From the NCBI RefSeq assembly GCF_000027125.1, contig NC_017626.1: a DNA stretch of 64,000 bases, one strand, 5' to 3'. Position 1 is the first letter of the stretch. Each line of letters opens with the position of its first letter. Of this stretch, positions 58,455 through 59,148 are shown in pieces. The notes below the pieces were generated by a model. The model saw only the letters and a list, made by a program, of their open reading frames with translations. It was not told the DNA's origin and ran no database searches. The stretch is from Escherichia coli 042. GTDB taxonomy: Bacteria; Pseudomonadota; Gammaproteobacteria; Enterobacterales; Enterobacteriaceae. The translations under genes were made by a program, and so were the position numbers.

Positions 58455-58694
58455 ATGGCTACTATCCCTGCCCTCGCACATACTCAGAACGCCTTTATCT
58501 GGCGCTTTATCATCGTTAATCCGAGTGATTCCCGCGTCGTTCACGTCGTGGCGTCAACCGAACAGGAAGCGCGTAACCGTTGTCCGTCCGGTTGTGTTGC
58601 CGTATTCGCTGCCCGTATTCGTCAGGGGGTAAGTCATGCTCAAGCGATTCCAGATAACCGCACGCGCTGTAAATCATCAAGGCCACGTTATTGA
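58455..58694 (+). CDS. small protein, possibly Icd-like (host cell division inhibitor-like)
   Basis: ATG with RBS GGAGG upstream; WRF ... TEQEAR ... FAARI pattern recalled from P4-family Icd-like proteins; low certainty. Confidence 0.4.
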   Translation: MATIPALAHTQNAFIWRFIIVNPSDSRVVHVVASTEQEARNRCPSGCVAVFAARIRQGVSHAQAIPDNRTRCKSSRPRY

Positions 58695-58821
58695 TATTCG
58701 GCAAAACGTGAACGCCACCAGCGTTAATGCAGCTATAGCAATATTGAAAGAAGAGTTAATCGGCTGTAGGTTCACGCAGGTGATGATCCGTGCCGTAGTT
58801 GAAGTGTCGACTGTTCATTAA
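58636..58821 (+). CDS. hypothetical small protein
   Basis: 61-aa ORF with strong RBS AGGGGG about 8 nt upstream of ATG; overlaps the preceding ORF in another frame. Confidence 0.4.
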   Translation: MLKRFQITARAVNHQGHVIDIRQNVNATSVNAAIAILKEELIGCRFTQVMIRAVVEVSTVH

Positions 58822-58860
58822 TCTCATTAATACAGCTTTAACAAAAACGTAATTCGACAA

Positions 58861-59148
58861 ATGAAAGCAAAAAATTCTGGCTTTACTGCCAGCGGTAAAA
58901 CTCGTCCTAAATTCATGCACGGCGATATTTACCGCGATAAATACGGCAGCACGGTAATGATTAAGGGCGTGAGTGAACGACGCATTACCTACCGCCGTGA
59001 AGGATACAAATATGACTGCGTGATGCCTGTTTATCAGTTCCAGCGTGATTTTACGCTGGTGGATCATCGTGAAACCGTAAATCAGAACCGTGCAGCAAGA
59101 TACATCCGCAAAATCTGCGAAATGATGGTTACTGGGGGCAAGAAATGA
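58861..59148 (+). CDS. hypothetical protein
   Basis: 95-aa basic ORF; stop overlaps the primase start (ATGA). Confidence 0.5.
   Translation: MKAKNSGFTASGKTRPKFMHGDIYRDKYGSTVMIKGVSERRITYRREGYKYDCVMPVYQFQRDFTLVDHRETVNQNRAARYIRKICEMMVTGGKK

Follow-up and report, generated by a model that had tools for sequence, protein, structure and literature searches.

The left operon of the satellite phage P4 is built from the named parts PLE, seqA, cI RNA, seqC, kil/eta, epsilon, orf151, cnr and alpha. The kil region is translated there either as kil from the PLE transcript or as eta from an AlpA/Vis-linked upstream promoter, and immunity halts transcription by Rho-dependent termination at timm. Icd is a phage P1 name, its P4 homolog is named Kil, and both P1 Icd and P4 Kil give phenotypes when expressed. 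Published work on P4 describes the CI RNA and seqA, reports that translation of Kil and eta prevents termination, and already notes C4 and isrK matches in Gram-negative phage-inducible chromosomal islands (PICIs) (PMC10111431), for which no master repressor had been identified in 2018 (PMC6092414). Here, we analyze three small open reading frames (ORF1, ORF2 and ORF3) that precede a primase gene in a 64,000-nucleotide stretch of Escherichia coli DNA, referred to throughout as the window. These ORFs are already annotated genes of a known kind of E. coli phage-satellite island, and we consider it likely that they open the early (replication) operon, under immunity control, of a Gram-negative PICI-type satellite related to P4 and located at tRNA-Pro(GGG).

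Inspection of the DNA upstream of ORF1 reveals matches to two RNA families together with paired recognition elements, which are listed here with the ORFs of the operon (nt, nucleotides; aa, amino acids).

58201-58206, + strand: candidate -10 hexamer, TATACT, of a putative PLE-like promoter, read from the sequence a few bases before the leader match
58213-58289, + strand: isrK-like leader RNA (Rfam RF01394, 52.9 bits against a gathering score of 50)
58238-58244, + strand: leader target element a1, TTACCAC, in a hairpin loop, complementary to C4 element a2
58254-58261, + strand: leader element b1/seqA, GTTAACGG, complementary to the C4 loop
58268-58284, + strand: terminator-like hairpin and then a T run at the leader end, from a terminator scan
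58314-58401, + strand: C4/CI-type antisense immunity RNA (Rfam RF01695, 77.7 bits against a gathering score of 45, model positions 1-87 of 87)
58357-58365, + strand: C4 loop b2, UCCGUUAAC, complementary to seqC and seqA
58373-58379, + strand: C4 single-stranded element a2, GUGGUAA, complementary to TTACCAC at a1 and a3
58406-58412, + strand: downstream target a3, TTACCAC, complementary to a2
58437-58445, + strand: downstream target b3/seqC, GTTAACGGA, overlapping the ORF1 Shine-Dalgarno GGAGG (58443-58447)
58036-58632, + strand: 198-aa Ash/Eta-like ORF covering the leader, the C4-like RNA and the greater part of ORF1 (Pfam Phage_ASH, 34.9 bits, residues 58-147; phrog_29966 positions 35-124)
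58455-58694, + strand: ORF1, Icd/Kil-family gene, 79 aa (NF033153; phrog_29966 positions 125-187)
58636-58821, + strand: ORF2, 61-aa orphan of a narrow E. coli family (phrog_3672, 53.5 bits, full length)
58861-59148, + strand: ORF3, DUF4222 protein of the RgdR family, 95 aa (PF13973, 85.1 bits against a cutoff of 27)
59145-61283, + strand: DUF927 primase/helicase, 712 aa, the last operon gene considered (PF06048, 160 bits; phrog_1139, 556 bits)

Both RNAs have their + strand genes within the Ash-family ORF, and 53 nt separate the end of the C4 match from the ATG of ORF1. ORF1 is the first ORF downstream of this C4/CI-type RNA, whose target overlaps the ORF1 ribosome-binding site. The C4 segment folds as in the Rfam model (-40.9 kcal/mol, z = -3.76) with both recognition elements unpaired. 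TATACT or TATGAT stands at the equivalent place of the candidate promoter in relatives, and isrK and C4 RNAs lie upstream in five of the six E. coli relatives examined.

Covariation between the antisense RNA and its targets was analyzed in 80 further loci encoding an ORF1 relative, from which 23 distinct leader-C4-start regions were aligned (alignment A3). For the a2:a3 helix, 100% of cells are paired and six of seven pairs have changed on both sides; for the a1:a2 helix, the corresponding figures are 97.4% and five of seven. None of 500 shuffles reached the covariation score of the a elements, and sliding the partner by one to three columns lowers a-element pairing to 15-59%. The helix between loop and Shine-Dalgarno is only 69.8% paired in a fixed-column count, a low figure explained by a one-column gap that displaces one subfamily. 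Counted without gaps over 20 loop cores, contiguous Watson-Crick pairs between loop and seqC average 8.1 for cognate versus 4.1 for non-cognate combinations, and those between loop and seqA 7.1 versus 4.2. Such co-varying loops and targets are, at the level of sequence, the signature of an immunity RNA that diversifies its specificity together with its targets, of the kind known from P4 (seqA/seqB/seqC) and from P1 (the a and b sites of c4; PMC10111431). In related E. coli elements, loop and both targets have diversified together into at least 20 specificities.

The arrangement is not uniform across the loci surveyed. Two tandem modules of C4 RNA plus icd-like gene occur in L007 (C4 RNAs at 1915-2002 and 2378-2465), L015, L017, L019, L024, L026, L030, L043, L045 and L057, and the tandem modules differ in loop specificity, each loop matching its own targets. 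In L008 (621-1587; O157-type CP-933C) and in about 45 IMG/VR loci, no C4 or isrK RNA was detected upstream of the Icd-like gene. A gene for a 247-aa hypothetical protein without a family match precedes the Icd-like gene in L008, and some of those IMG/VR loci carry a C4 copy downstream instead.

To describe how the locus could operate, we draw on P4 and P1 for RNA processing, Rho-dependent termination, helper induction and ORF1 toxicity, and we combine these analogies with the gene identities, RNA families, co-varying target complementarity and conserved order and overlaps observed here. A transcript from the PLE-like promoter would carry the isrK-like leader and the C4/CI-type RNA, the latter processed from the same transcript as in P4 and P1. 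The two single-stranded elements of the C4 RNA would then pair with a1 and b1/seqA upstream and with a3 and b3/seqC downstream. Pairing at seqC would cover the ORF1 Shine-Dalgarno, such that in the resting island ORF1 would be untranslated and transcription would stop before ORF2, ORF3 and the primase. Upon the switching on of AlpA-dependent upstream transcription by a helper phage, or should immunity be overcome otherwise, the Eta-like ORF/ORF1 region would be translated and transcription would continue to the primase. Within the window, hints of such a course are limited to the terminator-like hairpin at the leader end, the mild C-over-G excess at 58360-58560 and the candidate -10 hexamer.

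The initial annotation had placed the three ORFs at 58455-58694 (79 aa), 58636-58821 (61 aa) and 58861-59148 (95 aa), all on the + strand, and the ORF listing agrees. The overlaps it described are also present: ORF1 and ORF2 share 59 nt in different frames, and ORF3 shares 4 nt (ATGA) with the primase start. Its description of the group as tightly packed with ribosome-binding sites holds for ORF1 and for ORF2 (Shine-Dalgarno AGGGGG, 58624-58629) and fails for ORF3, which starts 39 nt past the ORF2 stop and has no recognizable Shine-Dalgarno; the primase is preceded by GGGGG at 59134-59138. Given that frames this short are frequent by chance (the same 9 kilobases (kb) hold 98 ORFs of at least 30 aa), ORF size alone is weak evidence, and the case is made instead from family matches, homologs and substitution pattern. 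Across 86 related loci (L005-L090), homologs are present in 86 for ORF1, 8 for ORF2 and 84 for ORF3. Substitutions at codon positions 1/2/3 number 738/693/1660 for ORF1, with a median ratio of nonsynonymous to synonymous substitution rates (dN/dS) of 0.23 over 65 distinct homologs; 140/119/259 for ORF2, with a median dN/dS of 0.44 for which only two pairs were evaluable; and 537/422/784 for ORF3, with a median dN/dS of 0.36. This pattern indicates purifying selection on all three frames and, taken with the homologs and family matches, identifies ORF1, ORF2 and ORF3 as genes rather than chance frames. A sequence search of the PDB returned nothing significant for any of the three.

ORF1 had been read as Icd-like, and this reading is borne out by NCBIfam NF033153 (phage_ICD_like), which ORF1 matches at 61.9 bits against a cutoff of 25 over profile positions 1-48 of 48. 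The same profile is matched by P4 Kil (76.1 bits) and by a 73-aa Icd from a P1-type plasmid (49.8 bits). RefSeq names the identical or near-identical ORF1 protein 'host cell division inhibitor Icd-like protein'. The 65-aa Kil of the literature corresponds to the C-terminal 65 residues of the P4 eta ORF (NC_001609), MATTLTPSHPEF...EVSRA, and in the P1-type plasmid an antirepressor gene comes next after the 73-aa Icd-like gene, the two overlapping by 4 nt (the c4-icd-ant layout). The Icd domain also occurs as the C-terminal domain of larger proteins. Residues F18, A33, E36, A39, R40 and R54 are invariant in the Icd-like alignment A2. A tblastn search of ORF1 against 50,697 phage records returned a single match, to the vB_KppS-Ant satellite, P4 and P1 being too divergent for this method. 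Based on its relatives in P4 and P1, ORF1 would be a Kil/Icd homolog, that is, a small, putatively toxic or division-blocking protein. Overlooked by the initial annotation were the C4 and isrK RNAs upstream, the 198-aa Ash/Eta-like ORF overlying ORF1, and the origin of the ORF1 length in a stop loss.

The nearest relatives of the window differ from it at a single base over 1.2 kb, with T in place of the window's C at 58641. At the relatives' junction, ATGCTTAA, a TAA stop at 58641-58643 closes a 62-aa ORF1 that overlaps ORF2 by 8 nt, and the T/C change is synonymous in ORF2. By this comparison, the 79-aa ORF1 and its 59-nt overlap are the result of a lineage-specific stop loss (TAA to CAA, stop to Gln). 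The ORF1 homologs of the 85 relatives measure 56-67 aa, with one exception of 88 aa, and their commonest junction is ATGnnTAA or ATGnnTGA, whichever gene comes next. The exact 79-aa form is found on 167 contigs, where it is annotated as Icd-like, and the 62-aa form on at least 1000. ORF2 would normally be coupled to ORF1 via the ATGnnTAA overlap, and this coupling appears to have been lost in the window's lineage. For annotation, the 79-aa Icd-like product is best recorded as a stop-loss variant of a 62-aa protein.

The stop loss bears on whether the ORF1 peptide matters at all. ORF1 could be a mere leader or 'sensor' ORF, with an inactive peptide and a translation that serves to keep Rho off the transcript; the window's lineage tolerates the 17 added residues, the variant has spread over 167 contigs, and in P4 it is translation of the kil region that prevents termination (PMC10111431). 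We regard this explanation as decidedly unlikely, since purifying selection acts on the amino acids of ORF1 (dN/dS 0.23; 1660 substitutions at third positions, about 700 each at first and second positions). The Icd domain is, moreover, conserved from P1-type plasmids through P4 to PICIs and recurs at the C-terminus of larger proteins. The phenotypes of P1 Icd and P4 Kil upon expression, as summarized in the literature, likewise speak for an active peptide. An Icd-like protein is also the likely cell-death effector in ECOR61 (bioRxiv 10.1101/2023.04.06.535777).

The 198-aa Ash/Eta-like ORF reads ORF1 in another frame over its last 59 codons. The phrog_29966 profile is split between the two, with positions 35-124 falling on the Ash-family ORF and positions 125-187 on ORF1, which implies that some relatives carry a single fused protein, like P4 eta/kil. 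Inspection of the 85 relatives reveals 47 in which the Icd-like ORF is in frame with an open upstream frame of at least 300 nt, and the window's arrangement is found in seven. In most genomes examined, the NCBI Prokaryotic Genome Annotation Pipeline (PGAP) records the equivalent Ash-family feature as a pseudogene with a 'missing C-terminus'. Two explanations for the overlapping frames were considered and rejected. The Eta tail is not a selected frame: third-position bias sits in the ORF1 frame, and the tail is not conserved as protein. Nor is there a programmed -1 frameshift from the Eta-like ORF into ORF1, as GCC-AAA-TGG holds no slippery heptamer and the Eta-frame tail is open in only about 11% of relatives. 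The match to Phage_ASH, or 'ash family protein', overlies the isrK-like and C4-like RNA genes (58036-58632, especially 58207-58476), and at least part of the apparent conservation of the Ash protein may be conservation of the RNAs. PGAP 'ash family protein' pseudogenes at this location should be annotated with the knowledge that they overlie RNA genes.

Several observations weigh against a P4-like switch ahead of the three ORFs. Pairwise BLASTP of ORF1 against P4 Kil yields no alignment, and the two are linked at the profile level only. ORF1 lies in the -1 frame relative to the 198-aa ORF, and the in-frame nesting of kil within eta that characterizes P4 is not found. The 17-aa extension in the window's lineage may alter or inactivate ORF1, and the normal coupling to ORF2 is gone. 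Upstream, a promoter consensus scan did not pick up the proposed PLE-like promoter, and the isrK match barely exceeds its gathering score. The C-over-G excess at 58360-58560 is mild (ratio 1.4-1.7) and is weakly suggestive of a Rho-utilization site. Finally, L008-type/O157 relatives have the Icd-like gene without a detectable upstream C4 RNA, such that RNA control is not family-wide.

ORF2 is the one component of the locus left unexplained. It matches no Pfam or NCBIfam family, phrog_3672 being its sole family, and a word-indexed search returned 14 clusters at 90% identity, nearly all from E. coli, with five representatives at 50% identity in an exhaustive search. Homologs in CP-933C-type loci share 36-48% identity, have exactly 61 codons and keep the same coupled start. 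AlphaFold predicts a β-β-α-β fold (predicted local distance difference test (pLDDT) 93.6, from a shallow alignment), and the model suggests a well-folded orphan without an assigned function. The P4 helper derepression protein epsilon was considered as a counterpart and rejected, with an hhalign probability of 0.2% and no PHROGs or Pfam family in common. The lack of a Pfam or NCBIfam family and the very narrow distribution (8 of 86 related loci) might be taken to mean that ORF2 is a chance frame between icd and ORF3. We consider this highly improbable, as length and coupled start are preserved at 36-48% identity, substitutions concentrate at third positions (140/119/259), the phrog_3672 match covers the whole ORF, and the structural model is confident (pLDDT 93.6).

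The broader notion of small proteins in this place acting on the host has published support in the case of the ORF3 family. A homolog search with ORF3 returned 372 clusters, all DUF4222. The sole studied member of this family is RgdR (ECs1581), a 99-aa basic protein from OI-51/CP-933C of enterohemorrhagic E. coli (EHEC) O157:H7, which activates LEE1 in the enterocyte effacement locus (LEE) as well as type III secretion, represses motility and binds DNA non-specifically (PMC3378721, PMC10877973). All six diagnostic ECs1581 residues (D10, R20, Q27, K35, H45 and R61) are present in the 99-aa protein encoded by the O157-type locus L008, and ORF3 is 61% identical to this protein over its full length. 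ORF3 shares with RgdR the DUF4222 core (residues 20-68) and the location before the primase. The two differ in their tails (99 aa ending in FRGKK for RgdR versus 95 aa ending in GGKK for ORF3, a different subtype) and at residue 20, which is Arg in RgdR and His in ORF3: the RGD tripeptide at residues 20-22 is absent and replaced by H20-G21-D22. Among ORF3 homologs, residue 20 is R, N, P, C, T or H, and changes at this residue of RgdR alter its activity in a context-dependent manner (PMC3378721). A structure model of ORF3 depicts a Tudor/SH3-like barrel with a C-terminal helix.

The gene order around ORF3 suggests a link to replication. Of 86 loci, 84 have a DUF4222 gene immediately ahead of the replication gene, and ORF3 is predicted to be coupled to the primase through the ATGA overlap. 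The first ~140 residues of the primase (59145-59560) match no Pfam domain and are nonetheless 40-56% identical in 81 of 86 loci. This N-terminal domain is kept though the remainder of the replicase varies (DUF927, RepA helicase, DNA primase family), and it is always preceded by a DUF4222 gene, which suggests a functional link between ORF3 and the replicase N-terminal domain of ~140 aa. The native job of ORF3 might then be that of an accessory factor of the island replication protein, a functional analog of P4 Cnr, with the LEE and motility effects secondary. We hold this only as a tentative possibility. It would accommodate the position of ORF3-type genes immediately before the replicase (84 of 86 loci, the overlap usually being ATGA), their association with the ~140-aa N-terminus across replicase families, the equivalent position of cnr in P4, and the non-specific DNA binding of RgdR (PMC3378721). 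Against it, ORF3 shows no sequence relation to Cnr/DUF5375 by hhalign or Pfam, and the published RgdR phenotypes are transcriptional (PMC3378721). Direct homology of ORF3 to P4 Cnr/DUF5375 was rejected (hhalign probability 0.1%; Cnr is PF17345 and ORF3 is PF13973).

Two further features of the island lie upstream of the operon.

56120-57364: integrase
57614-57808, + strand: AlpA-family helix-turn-helix (HTH) regulator, the positional equivalent of P4 vis/ORF88, 64 aa from an internal ATG (Pfam Phage_AlpA, 26.7 bits against a gathering score of 21)

The island adjoins tRNA-Pro(GGG) (55837-55913), which follows yejM. Its gene order is integrase, AlpA-like HTH, Ash-family ORF, the three ORFs, DUF927 primase, SSB, ProQ/FinO-family and PerC-family genes. 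PGAP annotates the equivalent of the AlpA-like gene in relatives as a helix-turn-helix or AlpA-family regulator, and the order across relatives is HTH, RNAs/Ash, Icd-like, one to three small ORFs, DUF4222 and replicase, with the overlaps of 8 nt and 4 nt kept. A near-identical island in E. coli NZ_CP151161 extends ~8 kb from tRNA-Pro to the last island gene before yejO, and no capsid, packaging, sid, psu or delta genes were seen in it. A repeat of the tRNA-Pro 3' end, as expected of an att site, was not found inside the window, and the right end of the island probably lies beyond position 64000. Gram-negative PICIs carry int, alpA and pri in one orientation by a specific att site and measure about 8-15 kb; the tRNA-Pro, int, AlpA-like gene and primase of the window, and the ~8 kb of the near-identical island, fit this organization. 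ORF2, ORF3 and the 198-aa ORF are identical to the E. coli 042 proteins CBG35258, CBG35259 and CBG35257. EcCI042 is named among the rgdR-containing Gram-negative PICIs, rgdR being present in all E. coli PICIs analyzed (PMC6092414). Because of this listing and of the exact protein matches, the island is very probably EcCI042 of E. coli 042 or its twin.

Several features downstream of the primase were recorded alongside. The island that holds the antisense RNA switch also has a gene for a ProQ/FinO-family RNA chaperone (61981-62517; PF04352, 87 bits). Proteins of the FinO type help antisense pairing in other systems, and by analogy this one might act on the C4-like RNA. A PerC-family gene (62514-62798; PF06069, 112 bits, with a weak ANR-family match) starts 4 nt before the ProQ/FinO stop, and PerC homologs of other E. 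coli PICIs activate or silence the LEE (PMC11773190). Iteron-like repeats occupy 63601-63745, with GTCCCACC-type copies at ~63601-63651 and four oppositely oriented GGTGGGAC copies at ~63692-63725, beside an AT-rich TATATATATATA run. Located downstream of pri, these repeats probably mark the island replication origin.

The content of the island also bears on whether the operon serves mainly in defense, the Icd-like gene and its linked genes, primase included, forming an abortive-infection or cell-death module fired when an infecting phage lifts immunity. In ECOR61, an Icd-like protein linked to a primase is the probable cell-death effector (bioRxiv 10.1101/2023.04.06.535777), cell death there responding to a phage accessory gene in the study of Silas et al., and the visible island is small, with no capsid or packaging genes in the related genome. 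We judge a mainly defensive role unlikely. Seven island proteins were run against PADLOC and none matched, ORF1 has no counterpart of the long N-terminal extension of the ECOR61 protein, and the related islands EcCICFT073 and EcCIEDL933 are experimentally mobilized PICIs (PMC6092414, PMC11773190). Defense and satellite propagation are, furthermore, not mutually exclusive roles. We retain the reading of the three ORFs as the proximal part of a satellite replication operon under immunity control.

Comparison with described systems places the locus within known biology, with low novelty. P4 resembles the window in its AlpA/Vis-like gene, isrK-type leader with seqA, C4/CI RNA, seqC at the Shine-Dalgarno of the Kil/Icd ORF, small ORFs and primase. 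The same RNA families precede kil in the same order in P4 (isrK, 60.8 bits; C4, which is the CI RNA, 74.9 bits), and a long Ash/Eta ORF runs over the RNA genes in both. The differences from P4 are that kil is nested in frame within eta, whereas ORF1 is offset by -1; that ORF2 and ORF3 are unrelated to epsilon and Cnr; that the primase is of the DUF927 type in place of alpha; that the related island has no sid, delta or psu; and that immunity specificity differs, with the loop UCCGUUAAC in the window versus UCCUGUGAA in P4.

The immI operon of P1/P7 (c4, icd, ant1/2) resembles the window in its C4-family RNA with two recognition elements (a and b) and in targets that include the ribosome-binding site of an Icd-family ORF, itself translationally coupled to the next gene. 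P1-type plasmids carry a 73-aa Icd and an antirepressor downstream, in contrast to the string of small ORFs and primase of the window. The PICIs EcCICFT073, EcCIEDL933 (OI-51/CP-933C) and EcCI042 have in common with the window int, alpA, the Ash/RNA region, the Icd-like gene, small ORFs, rgdR (DUF4222), primase, ssb and a PerC-family gene (PMC6092414, PMC11773190, PMC3378721). They differ in that the window RgdR has HGD and that the O157-type locus L008 lacks a detectable C4 RNA before its Icd-like gene, and the small ORFs between icd and rgdR vary in number and identity among PICI relatives. More a clean worked example than a discovery, the locus presents what appears to be an intact P4/P1-style RNA immunity switch in a resting PICI-type island, with a Kil/Icd homolog as the first gene under it. 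It supports the published suggestion that Gram-negative PICIs use CI/C4 RNA immunity for their replication operon (PMC10111431).

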